IMG/VR virus record: IMGVR_UViG_2675903591_000001
Location: 5,429 to 69,428 of that record
Strand: one strand, 5' to 3'
From: a virus
DNA length: 64,000 bases
The position numbers and the translations under genes are program-made. Positions 9,963 to 61,696 of this stretch are shown piece after piece (within the stretch, counting starts at the first letter, position 1; every line of letters starts with the position of its first letter). The notes under the pieces were generated by a model. The model searched no databases, had not been told where the DNA came from, and saw nothing but the letters and a program-made list of their open reading frames with translations.

Positions 9963-10402
9963 TCAACACCTGATCAGTTGAAAGCAAAACCTCAAAAATT
10001 TATAAGATAGGTATTTACCTACCTACTTATATCAATTATAGTCGCTTTCGTTTTCGGCGGTGAGCGATTATTTTTACTTTTAAAATAAATGCAAACGACA
10101 CTCAGTACCTGGCAGTAGCGTAATAGCCAAACACCAGCAGGGTCAGTCTCCAGCCCTGTTATCGAAATGGAGCAGACTGAGCGAGTCTGATTACGGAACG
10201 CAGGGACGGTGGCCACGGCCACCCGACCGATGGGGTAACGAGATGGGTGGGGGTAATTCCGACATGAACACCCGGGTTTTAAAGGCACTTCCGCCCATCT
10301 CGTTACGTCATTCCATATTACTTATGTCATTTATTCTTGGGTTGAATAATCGTAGACGTAGCCCGGCTGGCATGGTTAGCCAGCACAAATTCAGGGATCG
10401 AT

Positions 10403-10612
10403 ATGCAAGACGTTGATGAGCTTAAGCGAGCGGCCGCAACACTCTTTGTCAAAGCTATTCAGCAGAATCGTGGTGATTACGGCTCCGCGAGCACTGTAGA
10501 AGCGGTAAAGCAAGGGTGTTCGACGATGACAATAAGCCACGACGGAACTATATCGGCCTACAAAGATGGTGTGCTGAGAGTGCGAATGGGTAGCCTTGTT
10601 GGTGATTCGTAA
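10403..10612 (+). CDS. hypothetical small protein (69 aa)
   Basis: ORF following a 350-bp structured non-coding region. Confidence 0.4.
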   Translation: MQDVDELKRAAATLFVKAIQQNRGDYGSASTVEAVKQGCSTMTISHDGTISAYKDGVLRVRMGSLVGDS

Positions 10613-23168: not shown

Positions 23169-24338
23169 ATGAAAGTTTTAGAGACGATTTCCACGAAGCC
23201 CGGACTAAGCGACAGCAAAGCAAAAGAGATCTGGGAAGCGTTTGAGAAAAACGGGGCGTATCAGTTCAACAAATCTCACTCAGTGGCTTACTCGCTGATT
23301 AGCTATCAGTCGATGTTCATGAAGACGCACTACCCTGCCCAATTCTTCGCAGCAGCGCTGACTATTTTGGGTGATGACAAGCATCAGGGGCTGGTTAAAG
23401 ACGCTCTGAGCTTTGGCATTCGCATCTTGCCACCAGATGTAAATATCTCGACCAACCGCATTGAGATCCGCCAGATGGAAGACGGTACGCAAGTGCTGTA
23501 TGCGCCCTTCTCAGCTGTTAAAGGATGCTCAGAGAATGGATGCCAGGCGATCATGCGCGCCCGAGCGAAAGTGGGAGGCCATTTCACCGACATCATGCAG
23601 TTTGAAGAGGCGGTTGAGAAGCGCGCCTGCAACAGTCGTGTTCGTGATTCTCTCGATCGTGTCGGTGCATTTGCCAGCATCATCCCCGGCAGCTTACCCG
23701 CAACTTCCGAAGAGCGTCGCCGTGACCAGGCGGAGCTGATGGGTAATCTGGTGATCGATGCGGTAAAAGCGACACGCCGGTTTGAAATGAACCTGAAACG
23801 CCAGGCTGAAGTAAACGTGCTGATGACGAATATGGCCGCTGAAATGGGGCTGGGTGATGAGCTTATCCGTCCGAGCATCGGCATCAAACCACGCTTGATG
23901 ATCATCCTCGACAACGCCAACGGTAACGATGGAAAAACCGGCTACTTCATGGAGAACGGTTATGACGACTTCAAGGCGAAGTTGCTGGTTGCCGGTGATC
24001 TGAAGATGGGCGATTTGTACGTTACCGGCGTTTGCAAGAAGGTGAAGGACAAAGAAAAGGACTACACCAAAGACGAGTTAGGCCAGTTTAACGAGTTCAT
24101 CAAAGCAGAGGTGGCTTTGGTACGACCAACGTACATTCTTACGTGCGGCGCCAAGTCCACCAGCCTGTTTAACAACAAATCGAAGCCATCAGATCTTGTT
24201 GGCCGCAAAGAGTATCTGCCGGAGTTGGATGTCACGGTATTCTATGGCTTTAATCCCAACATTCTCCACTTCCGCCCAGAAGAAGGCGAAAAGCTGGAGT
24301 TGATCCTCGCTGACGTTGCCGAGGCAGTAAATTCGTGA
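23169..24338 (+). CDS. dnaE: DNA polymerase III alpha subunit, C-terminal fragment (end of fingers, HhH, divergent tail)
   Basis: YQFNKSHSVAYSLISYQSMFMKTHYPAQFFAAALT and ILPPDVNIS match the DnaE region after the fingers; has its own SD (AAGAGG) and ATG. Confidence 0.7.
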   Translation: MKVLETISTKPGLSDSKAKEIWEAFEKNGAYQFNKSHSVAYSLISYQSMFMKTHYPAQFFAAALTILGDDKHQGLVKDALSFGIRILPPDVNISTNRIEIRQMEDGTQVLYAPFSAVKGCSENGCQAIMRARAKVGGHFTDIMQFEEAVEKRACNSRVRDSLDRVGAFASIIPGSLPATSEERRRDQAELMGNLVIDAVKATRRFEMNLKRQAEVNVLMTNMAAEMGLGDELIRPSIGIKPRLMIILDNANGNDGKTGYFMENGYDDFKAKLLVAGDLKMGDLYVTGVCKKVKDKEKDYTKDELGQFNEFIKAEVALVRPTYILTCGAKSTSLFNNKSKPSDLVGRKEYLPELDVTVFYGFNPNILHFRPEEGEKLELILADVAEAVNS

Positions 24339-24592
24339 GCAAGCCTCACATCCTCTATAGGGCAGACTTGCGCTGCCCCAACTGCAAATCAGCGCCTGAA
24401 GTCATTCGAATGACGGATGAGAATACCGAGCAATTTTGGTGGGAAGAGAACGGCACGACATATCCCGTTTTATTGCGCCATACAGAGCTGGCAGCACGTC
24501 ATTGCACATTCAGAACTGAGATCTACCACCTGACCCTTCCGCTGGCTATTGGCGTTTGGAAAGAACAAATTAAAAACAGGAATAAACGATAA
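24335..24592 (+). CDS. hypothetical small protein (85 aa, GTG start overlapping the dnaE-C stop)
   Basis: ORF with a CxxC pair. Confidence 0.4.
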   Translation: MSKPHILYRADLRCPNCKSAPEVIRMTDENTEQFWWEENGTTYPVLLRHTELAARHCTFRTEIYHLTLPLAIGVWKEQIKNRNKR

Positions 24593-24969
24593 TGACTACC
24601 GAATTGGCACCGGCGATGATTGAGAAAGCGCGCGAAGCAATTACCCGCTCTAACTTCTGGGAGTTTATCGACCGCACTATGACACTTGAGCTGGCCGTGG
24701 CCAGCGCCAAATACGATGGCGAACGCGCCCCTAATCGTTTACGCAAGGCGGCCAAGGCAATGCTCAACGTCGTTTACGATCCTCTTATGCGTCGATTCGT
24801 TGACGGCATCAGTAGTTCGAGCAAAGCGCTGGAAAAGCTAGATGAGCTAAAGGCGTACCGCGACAGTCTGGTGACAAAGGTAGCCAATGAGTTTACTGAG
24901 GCCGAAAAGTTTGGCGACGTTGGCGAGTACCGCCGTCAAAGAGCTGCGAGAATGATGCAAGCAGCGTAA
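24592..24969 (+). CDS. hypothetical protein (125 aa)
   Basis: ATGA-coupled helical protein. Confidence 0.45.
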   Translation: MTTELAPAMIEKAREAITRSNFWEFIDRTMTLELAVASAKYDGERAPNRLRKAAKAMLNVVYDPLMRRFVDGISSSSKALEKLDELKAYRDSLVTKVANEFTEAEKFGDVGEYRRQRAARMMQAA

Positions 24970-24971
24970 GC

Positions 24972-24994
24972 AAAAGGCGCTATATAGCGCCTTT
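24972..24994. terminator. bidirectional terminator AAAAGGCGCTATATAGCGCCTTT
   Basis: perfect palindromic GC stem between the convergent 24592..24969 (+) and 24997..25797 (-) genes. Confidence 0.6.
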
Positions 24995-24996
24995 AA

Positions 24997-25797
24997 TTAT
25001 TTAACTCTTAGGAAAGTTGTGCTCAATACATTTTTATATCTATTCAAGTCGTTTTGTATTCCTGCTTCATTTACAATTAATCCTGCAGGGTCATATACAA
25101 GGCAAATCAAATGCCCACAATCTGGATGTTTCGTATACTTCATAATATCCTCTATTAACTGTTTTCCAATCTCTTTATCATTTAGACCCGCCCTCGTCAT
25201 TTTGCATTCGATTACGATTTTTTCTTTATGTAAAACAAAATCGATGCGGGCGTTCCGATTAAATGTTGAAGAAACAGCGTCCTCACATCTAATATCATCG
25301 AATTCAATTTTCAGAAGAGCATGGAGTAGGTCTTGCACATCATATTCATCATTCATCAACAATGGTGGTCTTGAAGCATATCTGATTTTCATAGCATCCA
25401 CGACCAGACCGAAACGCTCACATATATTTATGGCTTTTGATAGCGAGTCAACATTAGCAGACCCAAACAATTCGCCTCTATATTTTCTATAGTCAGATGT
25501 TATTTTATTAATTAACCCAACCGTATTTCTAATTATATCATCGCGAACAACTTTATAGTCTAGGTCTCTATCGTAAGATTTCATATCGGTTTTTTTAATG
25601 ACCGCCGAGATTTCCTTCCACTCACTAACAAAATCATGATTTGAAGGATATAAAGCCCTTATAGCTACCTCAATTTCATCAAAGGTCCTTTGGGTAACGC
25701 GGCTTCCAAAACAAATATCCTCTTTATTTTTAATGATAATTTTCCGCGAAATCAACTCATTTATTGCCCGCACTTTGGCGTCAGGATTCAGTTCCAT
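24997..25797 (-). CDS. putative effector of the cyclase operon: an uncharacterised N-terminal domain and a C-terminal PD-(D/E)xK nuclease-like domain
   Basis: C-terminal IDFVLHKEKIVIECK gives the D-(x11)-E-x-K catalytic pattern after an acidic helix; start set at MELNPD (ATG 25795..25797), which has a GAGGT SD. The track's longer ORF would read through the intergenic hairpin. Confidence 0.6.
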   Translation of the reverse strand: MELNPDAKVRAINELISRKIIIKNKEDICFGSRVTQRTFDEIEVAIRALYPSNHDFVSEWKEISAVIKKTDMKSYDRDLDYKVVRDDIIRNTVGLINKITSDYRKYRGELFGSANVDSLSKAINICERFGLVVDAMKIRYASRPPLLMNDEYDVQDLLHALLKIEFDDIRCEDAVSSTFNRNARIDFVLHKEKIVIECKMTRAGLNDKEIGKQLIEDIMKYTKHPDCGHLICLVYDPAGLIVNEAGIQNDLNRYKNVLSTTFLRVK

Positions 25798-25810
25798 TAT
25801 AACCTCTAAA

Positions 25811-25833
25811 AATAGGGGCTTCCGCCCCTTTTG
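25811..25833 (-). terminator. GGGGC-GGAA-GCCCC hairpin plus TATTTTT between the cyclase and effector genes (candidate attenuator or partial terminator)
   Basis: lies just after the cyclase TAA stop and just before the effector SD. Confidence 0.35.
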
Positions 25834-25834
25834 T

Positions 25835-26608
25835 TTATCCGACGTTGATCCGATAACCTTGAACGCCACCTCTGCCTATGTCACTTAATACAAATGACAA
25901 CCTGCCACCTTTTGAGGAAGGCCAAGCTGCTCTCAAATTGCTATCAATAAGAATAACATTGTTGCCACCTGAAAGTTTAGTTGCTCTGAACACGCATTCT
26001 CCATATGCTTTAGCATGTCTAGCTCCTTCAATTCCAGAAAGGCTTACCAGCGCCTTGCTAAGTGCCAATCCAATACCAATCTTCAAGGGCGGAAGGTCGT
26101 ATCTATTTGCTAAGGCGGTGTTTACGATATCTAAAGTATTATTTAAGCAATCTTTAGCCGCATTGTGAGCATCGTAAATGTACTGTTCCGGTTTTTCTTC
26201 TTCTTTTTTGAAAAAACCAAGAACACCATCACCTAAATATTCAGTGACACCCCCTTTATATATATTTATTGTTTTCTCAAGAGCAGGCAAAAGAGCAGAG
26301 GTTTCATAAAACACACGCTGTATTCCCTCAAGCCTAATCGAATTACTGGCAGTAAGCATGTGATCTGTAGAATTGCGCATATCGGCAACAATAGCTATGA
26401 AATCGTCTACTATCGTCTCGCCTTCCATAACTATTTCATGCCCAGGTATTTGACTTGGGGCCGAGTCCATAGCACTCTTATTGAAGGCTTCGGTGCCGAC
26501 TCTACTCTCTGATATTAATTTATATCCACCATTACTCCAATGGTATTCAGCTTGATTAAGAGACCTATCAACTAAGTTAGCAATTATTGACCGCTGATCA
26601 TTATTCAT
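25835..26608 (-). CDS. class III nucleotidyl cyclase domain protein (Pycsar PycC-like or adenylate/guanylate cyclase-like), minimal size
   Basis: FIAIVADMRNST matches the F-A-D-I-x-G-F-T metal site; YLGDGVLGFF matches the I-G-D-A-Y-M second Asp motif; KIGIGLALSKALVSLSGIEGARHAKAYGECVFRATKL matches the RIGIH.G.V..G..G......Y...G..VN.ASR transition-state region; its ATG overlaps the upstream TGA (ATGA). Confidence 0.7.
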   Translation of the reverse strand: MNNDQRSIIANLVDRSLNQAEYHWSNGGYKLISESRVGTEAFNKSAMDSAPSQIPGHEIVMEGETIVDDFIAIVADMRNSTDHMLTASNSIRLEGIQRVFYETSALLPALEKTINIYKGGVTEYLGDGVLGFFKKEEEKPEQYIYDAHNAAKDCLNNTLDIVNTALANRYDLPPLKIGIGLALSKALVSLSGIEGARHAKAYGECVFRATKLSGGNNVILIDSNLRAAWPSSKGGRLSFVLSDIGRGGVQGYRINVG

Positions 26609-27174
26609 GCCTGAACTCCAAAATTGAAGTAATATACAGTAGATAGAAACATACCTAAAGTAAGCCATCCCAAAGTCAAGTTAGTGCATACATTGACCCG
26701 AAGATTTTTAACATTACGAATTAAAGATACTTTCATCTTTTCACTAGCTAGTTCTTCAAGTAATTTTTGTTCATCTTGAGGTATAGCTGATAGGTAAGTT
26801 TGAACATCTTGAGTTGCTCTAACATCACTGATGCTAAAGAAATCCTTCTTCCCTATGAGAGGCATGCCACCCATGTAAAAAGTATCAGCTGGAACTATGC
26901 CGATCATATGTTTTTTTATGTCAGTTATTGGCGACAAACTTTTGAACAAAACATATACCGAGGCAAGCCATAAGAATGCTGTAATTACTGAAACAAATCC
27001 CAAGTGGTAAGGAGAAGTCCAAAGCTTTGCCACTGCTTTGGAAAGGCCTTCAACTGAAGTCAAAGGAAGAAAGATAACGACAAACAAGAAGCCAATCTTG
27101 ACATCTGTTGCACGAATAGTGGCTTGGGTATCATTAATCGATTGATAAAGAAACTCTATTTGTTTTTCTTTCAT
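26605..27174 (-). CDS. 3-TM membrane protein, first gene of the cyclase operon
   Basis: hydrophobic helices IGFLFVVIFLPLTSV, LGFVSVITAFLWLASVYVLF and LTLGWLTLGMFLSTVYYF; stop overlaps the cyclase start; weak candidate promoter TTGTTA-N17-TCAATA upstream on the - strand, around 27200..27240. Confidence 0.6.
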   Translation of the reverse strand: MKEKQIEFLYQSINDTQATIRATDVKIGFLFVVIFLPLTSVEGLSKAVAKLWTSPYHLGFVSVITAFLWLASVYVLFKSLSPITDIKKHMIGIVPADTFYMGGMPLIGKKDFFSISDVRATQDVQTYLSAIPQDEQKLLEELASEKMKVSLIRNVKNLRVNVCTNLTLGWLTLGMFLSTVYYFNFGVQA

Positions 27175-27384
27175 TTTTTACTTAGCGCCATCCGCATTGA
27201 CAAGTTAGATTTATTGAGAAAAATCCCATAGATTTAACAACTTTTTCTGACCCTAGACAACACCTTATGTTTCGTCCCTGAAGTCAAAGCAACGCTGATC
27301 GGCTAATCTCCAATAAATTATTAAATTTTGTTCAATTCTGGTAAAGTTTTGAAACCAAAAATTAGCTAATGAGCTACATGAAAT

Positions 27385-58979: not shown

Positions 58980-59709
58980 GACCACCAGCACACTCGATCG
59001 CCAGGCGTTGATGGAGACGTTTCTAAAGGGTGTGCCAACCGAAGAGCTTCTCAACCACGATATTAACAGTTGGTATGCGCACAAAGCGCAAGAGCAAGCC
59101 GAGGAAATGCGCGATGAAATGGACTCACCCGCTGGTGGACTTTTGAAATTCCTAAGTAGTGGGCCGATGTCAGGTATGGCAGCAATGATGTTCGCCAGGG
59201 AGTTTAAGGACACACCGGCCAAAAACTATTATGAGCTGGTATATCAATTGCCTGAAATGGGGGCTTTCACGGTCACTATCCAGCGTAATGATGGAGAGAC
59301 GCCAGCTCTTCAACTGGCCGCAGCCAAAGACCGTATTGCCATGCTCGAAGAATCACACGCTCAGGTGATTCAGGCGCGTGATTTGTACAAGCAGAGCTGG
59401 CAGCTGTCATCTCTACAATCCATGTCACGATCATTCCGCGAGGCAGTGAGAGCGGCGCGCAAGGTGTGGCTCGATGAGAATGACCCAAAGGACGGCACTG
59501 ACTGCGTCACACCATTCGACCAGTTCCTATACACGGAAGTTATTTCTGGCGAGGGTGTCGATTTGCCAGACCTCTTCGAGCTGATGGAGTGGGCGAAATA
59601 CCCAGCCGATGGGCGCGATCTCAACTCAGTGGCTAAGGGCAAGATGTCACGTCTTATTCTGGCCGCGACCGGTTTGGGGGATGCGTCACTTACAGTAAGC
59701 GATCGGTAA
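58960..59709 (+). CDS. hypothetical protein (249 aa)
   Basis: ORF. Confidence 0.45.
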   Translation: MNKMQHETTSTLDRQALMETFLKGVPTEELLNHDINSWYAHKAQEQAEEMRDEMDSPAGGLLKFLSSGPMSGMAAMMFAREFKDTPAKNYYELVYQLPEMGAFTVTIQRNDGETPALQLAAAKDRIAMLEESHAQVIQARDLYKQSWQLSSLQSMSRSFREAVRAARKVWLDENDPKDGTDCVTPFDQFLYTEVISGEGVDLPDLFELMEWAKYPADGRDLNSVAKGKMSRLILAATGLGDASLTVSDR

Positions 59710-60951
59710 TTCCTTCAGACATGTGGTGTAGCGCGGGGAAAGCATCTCGCGCTTCATCTGCCATTGGTTATCAACCCCCTGCCCTGCGAACCAAACCTTC
59801 CCCAACCCTGTTTTATTAATCTTGTCGATGACACCCATTAGCTCATCTGCTTTGGCTCGCGGCTGGTGCTCGCTGAACATATCCAATTGAGCGACACCGC
59901 CCTGGAAGAAGTCACCGAGCATGATACCCGCGCGCGCGTAACGATAGCCATCACGCCATATCCTTTTCAGACACTGCATGGCAAACGCTACAATGTCACG
60001 CGTGTCGGCAGTCGAGTACTCGCAGGTGATCGAAGAGCTGTTGCCATATTGAGGCTCATTGGCGTAGCGGCTCGTTGCAATGAAAACAGTAATAAGCCGG
60101 CAACGTGATTTTTGTTCTCTCAATTTCTCTGAGGCACGAACGGCATAAGTGCAAACGGCATGTTCCATGTCTTCCAGGCGCTCAACGCGCTGCCCAAAGG
60201 ATTTGGAGGTGACGATCTGCTGCTTTGGTGGCGGCTGCTCTTCAAGTGGGATGCACGATTCACCATTCAGCTCACGGACGGTGCGCTCAAGCACTACACC
60301 GAAATGTTTGCGGATCATCGTCGTGTTGGCCTGTGCCAGCTGTAGCGCCGTTTCAATGCCCATCTGGTTGAGCCTCTTAGTTAATCGGCTCCCAACACCC
60401 CAGACATCACTTACATCGACGAGAGCCATCAGTTTGCGCTGTCGCACCGGGCTGGATAAGTCCAGCACCCCGTTTGTTTTTGACCATTTTTTGGCAGCGT
60501 GATTTGCCAGCTTTGCCAAAGTTTTACTTTGCGCAAACCCCACACCTACGGTTAGAAACGTTTCTTTTTTGATGCGATCTCGAAGCTGATGCCCAAAATC
60601 TTCAAGAGGTATACAACTGGAAATGCCTGTTACATCGAGAAAACTTTCGTCAATGCTGTAAATTTCTTGGCCTGGCGCCATCTCACCCATGATGGTCATC
60701 ATTCGTCGGCTCATGTCGGCATACAGAGCATAATTGCTGGAAAAGACCACTACGCCCTTCTCTTCAAAGAAACGCTCGTTTTTGAACAGTGGATCACCCA
60801 TTTTTATGCCAAATTTCTTGGCTTCAGCTGACCGTGCCACGATGCAGCCATCGTTGTTAGAACAGACCACAACTGGCTTCCCGCGCAAGTCAGGTCGAAA
60901 AATGGTCTCACATGAAGCGTAGAACGAATTTGCATCAACAAGGGCAAACAT
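59686..60951 (-). CDS. umuC: Y-family translesion DNA polymerase, UmuC-like
   Basis: N-terminal MFALVDANSFYASCE and the conserved Y-family palm and fingers. Confidence 0.85.
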   Translation of the reverse strand: MFALVDANSFYASCETIFRPDLRGKPVVVCSNNDGCIVARSAEAKKFGIKMGDPLFKNERFFEEKGVVVFSSNYALYADMSRRMMTIMGEMAPGQEIYSIDESFLDVTGISSCIPLEDFGHQLRDRIKKETFLTVGVGFAQSKTLAKLANHAAKKWSKTNGVLDLSSPVRQRKLMALVDVSDVWGVGSRLTKRLNQMGIETALQLAQANTTMIRKHFGVVLERTVRELNGESCIPLEEQPPPKQQIVTSKSFGQRVERLEDMEHAVCTYAVRASEKLREQKSRCRLITVFIATSRYANEPQYGNSSSITCEYSTADTRDIVAFAMQCLKRIWRDGYRYARAGIMLGDFFQGGVAQLDMFSEHQPRAKADELMGVIDKINKTGLGKVWFAGQGVDNQWQMKREMLSPRYTTCLKELPIAYCK

Positions 60952-61045: not shown

Positions 61046-61696
61046 TTAGTAGTCTGCGAACTGAGCATATGGAATGCGAAGCCCAACGCGCTTGCCGAAA
61101 GAGTTGGCGAAAGTGTTCTGGTATTTGCTGACGTAGCGAGCTTGTAACTCAGAACCTGTCCAGCGGATGATCACCCCAGAATATCCAGTAACCGTGCCAT
61201 CATCTGAAATATTACCTGGTACTGCATTCATTAAGAACCAAGGGTTAAAACCGGGAGACGTTGAGACTGTTACATTGTCAACGTTCGAGTTTGGTTTCAG
61301 CTCAAGGAATCCCCGGATGCGTGGTGCAAGGTTAGCGCTTTTGGCACTCCATACTAAGTTTCCATTAGCATCAAGAACATCAAGATAGCCACTTTGAATA
61401 GGTACATTTCGGCTTGTTCGTAAGATACGACCGCTGTTGTTCTGGAAGGACTGGGCGCCAGGGAAGCAGAACGCGCCCGGATTAAGCTGAACCCAGTATA
61501 AATATCCCGGAACTGGACTATCGGCCGGTTTCAGAAAGCCAAATGGGTAATCACCCCCAAATGGATTTTTAACCATGTAATAACCAATATCAGTAAGACC
61601 GGTTATGTTACGGACATCACTCACTAGTGTATTTCGGTGTTGCGAATCAACCTGAAGTGCCCCTGCACTGTTGTATACCTCAAACCCCATTGCCAT
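61046..61696 (-). CDS. hypothetical protein (216 aa)
   Basis: ORF with a β-rich sequence. Confidence 0.5.
   Translation of the reverse strand: MAMGFEVYNSAGALQVDSQHRNTLVSDVRNITGLTDIGYYMVKNPFGGDYPFGFLKPADSPVPGYLYWVQLNPGAFCFPGAQSFQNNSGRILRTSRNVPIQSGYLDVLDANGNLVWSAKSANLAPRIRGFLELKPNSNVDNVTVSTSPGFNPWFLMNAVPGNISDDGTVTGYSGVIIRWTGSELQARYVSKYQNTFANSFGKRVGLRIPYAQFADY

Follow-up and report, generated by a model that had tools for sequence, protein, structure and literature searches.

A Pycsar-type gene pair and a probable companion nuclease gene in a cargo slot of an SSU5-like phage-plasmid

In classical Pycsar defence systems (clades A-E, with cyclic CMP or cyclic UMP, cCMP or cUMP), a class III-fold nucleotide cyclase (PycC) with two metal-binding Asp residues is encoded beside an effector of the PycTM or PycTIR type. 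A further group is represented by Liu-DS6 of Escherichia coli, a five-gene 'Clade F Pycsar + type IV Thoeris' operon with the order TM-cyclase-TIR-caspase, where TM stands for a transmembrane protein (Nucleic Acids Res 2026, PMC13069673). The TM and cyclase pair of Liu-DS6 alone protects E. coli, and mutation of the cyclase active site removes its contribution; in the published Pycsar-Thoeris operons, the two systems act in synergy, and neither activates the effectors of the other (PMC13069673). A 2026 preprint, which mentions 'Clade F' once, describes 'Pucsar' as an offshoot of Pycsar that makes 3',5'-cGMP and has TIR and TM effectors (bioRxiv 10.64898/2026.08.12.744502). On the nuclease side, the PF18742 domain has been described as a restriction endonuclease (REase) variant among the effectors of Detocs (bioRxiv 10.1101/2023.01.24.525353). 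Here we compare with these systems a cassette of three minus-strand genes, encoding a small membrane protein, a nucleotide cyclase and a PF18742 nuclease, found in a viral DNA stretch of 64,000 nucleotides (nt) from an SSU5-like phage-plasmid (IMG/VR record IMGVR_UViG_2675903591_000001, positions 5,429 to 69,428; hereafter the window, meaning the whole stretch).

The cassette is best explained as two defence modules, a two-gene Pycsar system and an independent companion nuclease gene, a reading to which we give a probability of about 0.65. All three open reading frames (ORFs) were found where a preliminary description of this DNA, made from the sequence alone, had placed them. The features on which the argument turns are as follows.

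26605..27174, minus strand: predicted PycTM-family membrane effector of 189 amino acids (aa) with three hydrophobic segments (PADLOC model PycTM PDLC02364; hydropathy)
25835..26608, minus strand: predicted Pycsar-type class III-fold nucleotide cyclase of 257 aa if translation starts at the ATG within the ATGA overlap with the preceding stop codon, with metal-site residues D76 and D127 (PADLOC, PDB profile and fold matches)
25814..25829, minus strand: terminator-like hairpin with a T-run between the cyclase and nuclease genes (terminator scan, folding)
24997..25797, minus strand: 266-aa protein with a four-helix bundle (about residues 1-140) and a PF18742 REase_DpnII-MboI nuclease domain of the PD-(D/E)xK type, with D186, E197 and K199 (Pfam, structural model)

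The product of the first gene matched the PADLOC model PycTM PDLC02364 across its full length (2.2e-11), and a PADLOC PycTM match was also obtained for each of its 26 aligned relatives. It was 40% identical over its full length (1e-39) to a RefSeq 'Pycsar system effector family protein' of E. coli. Neither Pfam nor NCBIfam returned a match to it, and the Pfam model for PycTM, PF18967, reached two of the 26 relatives. The three TM segments of the preliminary description were seen as three hydrophobic segments. Its view of the protein as an extra component replacing the Pycsar effector has to be given up, as the PADLOC matches of the protein and all of its relatives identify it, at the level of sequence, as a PycTM-family effector in its own right. 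Its stop codon and the start codon of the cyclase gene share the 4-nt overlap ATGA, which had also been reported.

The cyclase matched six PADLOC PycC models (best 5e-11), and the 20 aligned relatives all match PycC as well. Of the motifs on which the class III assignment had first been based, the metal-site residues D76 (in VADM) and D127 (in GDG) are invariant among these 20. When the cyclase profile was compared with the PDB, class III adenylyl cyclases were recovered (CyaC, 1.7e-5), while BcPycC was matched only at 0.007. An AlphaFold (AF2) model with a predicted local distance difference test (pLDDT) score of 82.6 was matched by Foldseek to Cya2 (6e-12), to the cCMP synthase EaPycC (1e-9) and to the cUMP synthase BcPycC (3e-8). 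A PF00211-type match, which the preliminary description had expected, was found neither for the cyclase at E≤1 nor for any of the 20 relatives at E≤0.01, and NCBIfam also returned no match to the cyclase. The class III assignment therefore rests on the PADLOC, PDB-profile and fold matches. With PF00211 reaching 0/20 of the cyclases and PF18967 2/26 of the TM proteins, Pfam is no guide to membership here, either for or against, and the TM and cyclase family is, as judged from these profile comparisons, a divergent clade that general libraries have overlooked.

The neighbours of the cyclase family were examined in a sample of one genome per species, which gave 35 loci with a cyclase relative. 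A TM-protein homolog of about 190 aa, mostly with three hydrophobic segments, adjoins the cyclase in 25 of them and lies upstream of it in 24. This pair is conserved across many species, and close relatives in Serratia, Yersinia and E. coli consist of the bare TM and cyclase genes. In seven of the 35 loci, belonging to Burkholderia, Caballeronia, Paraburkholderia and Pseudomonas, a protein with cNMP_binding and PF10137 'CAP12/Pycsar effector TIR' domains, matching PADLOC PycTIR at 5e-106, is found near the cyclase, directly beside it in four and with a canonical PycC gene in between in three. Because the same cyclase family is paired with both canonical effector types, it is a Pycsar cyclase whichever effector accompanies it. 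The relatives lie on mobile elements and in defence neighbourhoods, close to genes for GmrSD, Kiwa-like, retron reverse transcriptase and type IV Thoeris proteins. From the profile matches, synteny and model together, the middle gene is predicted to encode a class III-fold cyclase of Pycsar type, and the first two genes are identified as a Pycsar system. The preliminary description had put the operon forward as an undescribed system, a proposal it tied to the absence of a match with any system already named; genes 1 and 2 do match one, Pycsar.

In a HMMER alignment of the cyclase to CyaC, the family-invariant E123 stands at the position of the adenine-specifying (purine-specifying) Lys of adenylyl cyclases, and the likewise invariant K200 at the second specificity position, occupied by Thr/Asp. 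Guanylyl cyclases typically have Glu at the first of these positions, and Cya2, which the modelled fold matches best, is a guanylyl cyclase. Lys200 fits neither the canonical adenylyl nor the canonical guanylyl cyclases, and the E123/K200 pair fits no characterised pattern. The aligned residues and the modelled fold suggest cGMP, as described for Pucsar, as a possible product in place of a cyclic pyrimidine. In addition, F207 and K211 replace the canonical Asn and Arg.

The 257-aa cyclase family also occurs as the second cyclase of an operon, beside a canonical PycC, in 12 of the 35 loci (L003, L008, L009, L011, L012, L015 and L023, ~700 nt upstream of the TM gene; L016, L017, L024, 5299-5985, L021, 5025-5996, and L032, 5185-5961). 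The arrangements seen were PycC (240 aa, PADLOC 2e-93)-PycTM-cyc257, PycTIR-PycC (228 aa, 1e-95)-cyc257 and PycTM-PycC-like-cyc257. Such two-cyclase Pycsar operons could mean heterodimers or two sensors. Two Xenorhabdus loci (L035 and L036; 4281-5211 and 5698-6549) hold two tandem cyclase-like paralogs of 280-283 aa, in which the family match covers the central part only, and no PycTM or PycTIR was detected at either locus by tblastn.

A distant DNA search of complete E. coli genomes led to a chromosomal five-gene operon (L137) encoding a 'Pycsar system effector family protein', a 262-aa hypothetical protein, a TIR protein, a caspase-family protein and a 149-aa ORF. The window's cyclase is 47% identical over its full length to the cyclase of this operon (7e-83), and the TM protein 40% identical to its counterpart (1e-39). 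The L137 operon lies within an integrase-bounded island together with a KwaB-like gene, sce7725/sce7726 family genes and a gene for a RES-family NAD+ phosphorylase (2680-3573, 7813-10579). The window shares with Clade F Pycsar, as represented by Liu-DS6, the same gene order, with the TM effector first and a cyclase of ~260 aa second; both occur in Gammaproteobacteria on mobile elements, and in both a second, co-oriented defence module tends to follow immediately. They differ in what that module is, since Liu-DS6 has a TIR and caspase-like type IV Thoeris pair and a fifth gene where the window has a single PF18742 nuclease gene. A search for counterparts of the TIR, caspase and fifth genes of L137 was negative both for the window and for 44 related loci. 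The likeness to Clade F is drawn from gene order and homology to the L137 operon. By analogy, the arrangement in the window appears comparable to the published Pycsar-Thoeris operons.

With classical Pycsar the window shares the class III-fold cyclase with two metal Asp residues beside an effector, the PycTM and PycC profile matches, and the pairing of its cyclase family with a cNMP_binding and PF10137 PycTIR protein. However, the profile matches are distant (E about 1e-11), PF00211 and PF18967 mostly miss, sequence similarity to BcPycC is marginal (0.007), and in the 12 two-cyclase loci the window's family accompanies a canonical PycC. Like Pucsar as described in the preprint, the window's cyclase family has TIR and TM partners; E123 and the best fold match to Cya2 point in the direction of a guanylyl cyclase, but Lys200 at the second specificity position follows neither the adenylyl nor the guanylyl pattern.

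The third protein matched PF18742 at 1.5e-40, and both this match and the structural model place the start of the nuclease domain at about residue 145. Residues D186, E197 and K199 and a DEYDVQDLLHALL motif are invariant in 24 nuclease relatives. The preliminary description had noted an REase-like triad at the C-terminus, and an intact PD-(D/E)xK domain is indeed present, although with the spacing D-x10-E-x-K and not D-x11. The unassigned N-terminal part was also found, at about 140 aa in place of the 170 first given. In the AlphaFold model (pLDDT 81), these ~140 residues are all-helical and are followed by an alpha/beta nuclease domain whose fold resembles BamHI/BglII/BstYI; Foldseek against the PDB gave weak matches to the nuclease domain only (CdiA-CT toxin, XPF/Mus81 and Can2/Cdn1). 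The N-terminal part had been suggested as a possible ligand sensor, in which a cyclic nucleotide (cNMP)-binding, SAVED or CARF-like fold was to be looked for. It is modelled as a four-helix bundle, and none of the three folds was detected in it in the model or by Foldseek against the PDB. Nor was any similarity found between the nuclease profile and the PycTM family profile. A phmmer search with the N-domain alone against 1.84 billion representatives recovered only its own cluster, and the reading of it as an orphan domain was considered and rejected, since hhalign relates it to the corresponding domains of the solitary relatives (95.6%, E 1e-8, 131 columns). The N-domain is thus the usual one of the family and not a Pycsar-specific addition.

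The nearest named matches of the nuclease are the Argonaute-associated 'Aga_Helical-REase' of PADLOC (5e-23) and 'EcbAgaN' in PDB entry 23wq (1.6e-6). With AgaN and the Detocs REase variants it shares the PF18742 domain, an intact D...ExK and a helical N-terminal part, but neither an Argonaute nor a Detocs partner accompanies it in the window, the PADLOC and PDB matches are confined to the nuclease domain, and its N-domain is the short four-helix bundle common to solitary relatives. A literature search on AgaN returned nothing relevant. CBASS Cap4 and the type III CRISPR nuclease Can2, PD-(D/E)xK enzymes that cyclic nucleotides activate, are also restriction-fold nucleases encoded beside a nucleotide cyclase, and Foldseek gave weak matches of the nuclease domain to Can2 and Cdn1. 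They differ in that the window's nuclease has no SAVED or CARF sensor and shows no family-wide co-occurrence with a cyclase, and in that the window's cyclase is of class III and not a CD-NTase or Cas10. For a type II restriction-modification (R-M) system of the DpnII/MboI-like kind a cognate methyltransferase would be expected, and none was found in the cassette or its flanks.

The association of the nuclease with the other two genes is narrow. A nuclease gene was found in 0/35 of the species-level cyclase loci, and a cyclase or PycTM homolog in 0/84 loci of PF18742 relatives (80 metagenomic and four looked up singly; 45 are at least 4 kb), which have no recurring neighbour and include a methyltransferase in three cases. 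Full-length relatives of the nuclease stand alone near Rhs cassettes, in a type I R-M/Fic/Mrr island, beside AAA_14/DUF4143 genes or among small phage-like genes. The trio occurs only in one enterobacterial sub-lineage, in which the cyclases are at least 83% identical to that of the window, so the general three-gene synteny that the preliminary description looked for does not exist.

Natural deletions were observed in both directions. A Klebsiella variicola plasmid, pE25a, and a Klebsiella michiganensis contig carry intact TM and cyclase genes followed by a dead 5' stub of the nuclease gene (~125 nt, with ATG changed to ATA) and then unrelated DNA; the dN/dS (ratio of nonsynonymous to synonymous divergence) of the pE25a TM and cyclase genes relative to the window is 0.07-0.08. 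A further contig (L139) has a 5'-truncated TM gene, the cyclase gene and then 39 nt of the nuclease gene. Conversely, in contig L048 the nuclease gene is intact (82% identical), and of the cyclase gene in front of it no more than the final ~100 nt remain. No trace of a nuclease gene was seen in the more distant two-gene relatives (Serratia, Yersinia and E. coli) or in contig L053. These reciprocal remnants indicate that each module survives loss of the other.

The two modules are also physically set apart in the window. The 37-nt spacer between the cyclase and nuclease genes (25798-25834) contains a GC-rich hairpin followed by UAUUUUU, and the 51-nt stretch 25795-25845 folds at -13.2 kcal/mol (z -1.7 relative to shuffles). 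Compared with the 15-nt spacer of a cassette in Enterobacter soli, the hairpin at 25814-25829 looks like an insertion of about 21 nt (CGGAAGCCCCTATTTTTAGAG). It is present in the window, in Enterobacter pCP102 and in a Cronobacter dublinensis contig, that is, in the phage-plasmid lineage only, and missing from the E. soli cassette. The genes had been called tightly coupled, which holds for TM and cyclase with their ATGA overlap but not for the nuclease gene beyond its 37-nt spacer and terminator-like hairpin. We infer that the nuclease gene most probably serves defence in its own right, as a companion of the Pycsar pair.

An alternative that we consider unlikely is that the nuclease gene is no anti-phage effector but has a selfish or maintenance role for the mobile element, and stays beside Pycsar through linkage alone. 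The gene would then encode a solitary restriction-type enzyme tolerated via host methylation, or a toxin stabilising the cassette, which would suit the DpnII/MboI-like restriction fold of PF18742 with its resemblance to BamHI/BglII/BstYI, the relatives inside a type I R-M/Mrr island and beside Rhs toxin cassettes, and the low count of methyltransferase neighbours (3/84). Yet the window's nuclease has no immunity gene, antitoxin or methylase beside it, the family is scattered singly in defence-island-like contexts, and the PF18742 domain serves as an abortive-infection effector in described systems.

Several observations weigh against two independent modules of which the first is Pycsar. The trio is kept in two unrelated settings, the phage-plasmid slot and the chromosome of E. 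soli, where it lies between unrelated metabolic genes and is homologous to the window from 27272 to 24980 at 83.7%. Between the window and E. soli, synonymous divergence (dS) is similar for the TM, cyclase and nuclease genes (0.55, 0.75 and 0.80, respectively), and dN/dS values of 0.05, 0.07 and 0.13 reveal purifying selection on all three, so that these genes have shared their travels for a long time. The E. soli spacer between cyclase and nuclease genes is only 15 nt and has no hairpin, so that the trio there very probably forms a single operon. All nuclease orthologs that have precisely this N-domain sequence adjoin a cyclase gene or its remnant. There are PycTM proteins that lack a recognisable cNMP-binding domain, and a sensor in the nuclease might likewise escape recognition by fold alone. 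As to the Pycsar pair, Pfam PF00211 and NCBIfam fail to recognise the cyclase, and the likeness of the L137 operon to Liu-DS6 is one of architecture.

The conservation of the trio in two contexts, with similar dS, purifying selection and the short E. soli spacer, and the constant presence of a cyclase gene or its stub beside orthologs with this N-domain, are also the grounds for supposing a true three-component system, the idea of the preliminary description. Here the cyclase product, or the cyclase protein, would activate both PycTM and the PF18742 nuclease, with the four-helix bundle as a new sensor; PF18742 domains are signal-controlled effectors elsewhere, in the Detocs variants and the Argonaute-associated AgaN. 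We regard such a system as quite unlikely, given that the nuclease is missing from 35/35 species-level cyclase loci and no cyclase lies near the 84 nuclease relatives, that the N-domain is homologous to those of solitary relatives, with no cNMP-binding, SAVED or CARF fold and no likeness to PycTM, that both modules persist intact after loss of the other, and that a terminator-like hairpin separates them in the window. The particular proposal that the nuclease is a second Pycsar effector, switched on through the four-helix bundle by the cyclase product, the cyclase or PycTM, is decidedly improbable. If true, a nuclease arm would for the first time be part of a Pycsar-type system, the four-helix bundle would be a sensor of cyclic mononucleotides of a new kind, and the three genes would be a unit maintained in a small enterobacterial lineage.

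Finally, the reading that the plasmid uses the cyclase and membrane protein for ordinary cAMP/cGMP signalling and not for defence, as might be supposed from the RefSeq naming of relatives simply as adenylate/guanylate cyclase and from the best fold matches to cyanobacterial adenylyl and guanylyl cyclases, deserves hardly any credence, because all relatives match Pycsar-specific models, their partners are PycTM or PycTIR effectors, their loci are mobile elements and defence neighbourhoods (GmrSD, Kiwa-like, retron reverse transcriptase, type IV Thoeris), and an operon of the same architecture is reported to be phage-protective (PMC13069673).

Under the preferred reading of a Pycsar pair with an independent companion nuclease, the cassette is a new example of a known system, and the nuclease gene, which comes from a family of solitary nucleases, is an addition confined to one lineage. 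The assignments to families, the synteny, the limits of the modules, the purifying selection and the losses in both directions are results of the analysis. For the signal, the trigger and the killing at the membrane, we infer a scheme in which the first module, a divergent 'TM gene first' Pycsar made up of the PycTM and cyclase genes, would respond to phage infection with synthesis of a 3',5'-cyclic mononucleotide (cCMP or cUMP, possibly cGMP) by a homodimeric class III-fold cyclase. The small three-TM protein would respond by damaging the inner membrane, and the cell would die before phage release. The second module, a stand-alone gene for a four-helix bundle and PF18742 nuclease, would have been joined downstream of the cyclase gene in the same orientation in one enterobacterial sub-lineage. 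The nuclease would act alone, as a nuclease-type defence or toxin, its contribution being at most additive or synergistic with Pycsar and not switched by the cyclic nucleotide.

The history that would fit this scheme begins with the widespread TM-cyclase Pycsar module, just downstream of which a solitary helical-REase gene was probably gained in one enterobacterial lineage. The trio would next have reached a chromosome, IncF-type plasmids and the phage-plasmid slot, after which each half would have been lost in separate events. The insertion of ~21 nt that made the hairpin between the modules would have occurred solely in the phage-plasmid lineage.

The surroundings of the cassette identify it as acquired, exchangeable cargo, for which the SSU5-like phage-plasmid has a fixed slot. 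Its limits and the remaining features are as follows.

24956..27382, no strand assigned: variable cargo cassette in the phage-plasmid slot (break in homology to the JZ38 plasmid, lowest GC)
24973..24994, no strand assigned: terminator-like hairpin (stem of 9 pairs, loop of 4) closing the cassette and shared with the convergent plus-strand gene
27175..27272, minus strand: upstream region travelling with the cassette, presumed promoter and leader (nucleotide homology to cassettes of relatives)

The window covers the replication and recombination part of the phage-plasmid, with genes for a split DnaE, CobT/AAA_5, a gp32-like regulator, a 5'-3' exonuclease, a Rep3 initiator, a ligase and ribonucleotide reductase. 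This backbone matches about 390 enterobacterial plasmids of ~110 kb and Klebsiella phage-plasmids at ~75%, and its nearest relatives (93-98%) are Enterobacter pCP102, the C. dublinensis contig and a plasmid of Cronobacter sp. JZ38. Homology to the JZ38 plasmid, 96% identical in the backbone, ends at 24955 and returns at 27383, and between these points that plasmid holds three other, unrelated minus-strand genes. The interval singled out in the preliminary description is therefore a real swappable cargo slot. Its claim that the insert was acquired is borne out by this interruption across 24956-27382, and the AT-richness it noted by a GC content of 0.35-0.41 compared with 0.50-0.55 in both flanks, the lowest of the whole 64-kb window.

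The hairpin that had been said to bound the operon near 24972 was found at 24973-24994, between the stop codons of the plus-strand DUF7740 gene (24969) and the nuclease gene (24997). On the other side, upstream homology extends to 27272 in the E. soli chromosomal cassette and to 27244 in the K. variicola plasmid module. A scan of the cassette for sigma-70 promoters gave matches only at chance level, so no promoter is claimed. Rfam returned nothing for the cassette other than a chance-level snoRNA match, and megablast of the cassette against phages and E. coli genomes gave no match.

The slot, between the DUF7740 gene and a 142-aa gene, is a cargo hotspot of SSU5-like phage-plasmids. In the JZ38 plasmid (L044, 7160-8582) the three minus-strand genes encode 248, 97 and 57 aa and have no match in PADLOC or Pfam, while in Klebsiella phage pJN2-26 (L138, 1472-1900) the same slot holds other minus-strand genes, a cold-shock-family gene and a 41-aa ORF. 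A small indel gene adjoins the slot: a 259-nt segment (24339-24597) with an 85-aa CxxC-containing ORF (24335-24592) is present in the window and the C. dublinensis contig and cleanly missing from pCP102 and the JZ38 plasmid. Elsewhere in the mostly plus-strand backbone, a UmuC/ImpB-type Y-family polymerase gene (59689-60951) and an unassigned 216-aa ORF (61049-61696) lie on the minus strand, and this region may be another cargo position.

Carriage of Pycsar as swappable cargo of a phage-plasmid agrees with the idea that phage-plasmids equip their hosts to resist other phages. For Pycsar biology, E123 and the frequent role of this family as a second cyclase may matter more than the nuclease. 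The narrow but stable linkage of the nuclease, together with the natural reciprocal deletions, offers a ready-made test of whether defence genes that are neighbours in an operon cooperate or merely travel together, the same question that is posed by the published Pycsar-Thoeris operons.

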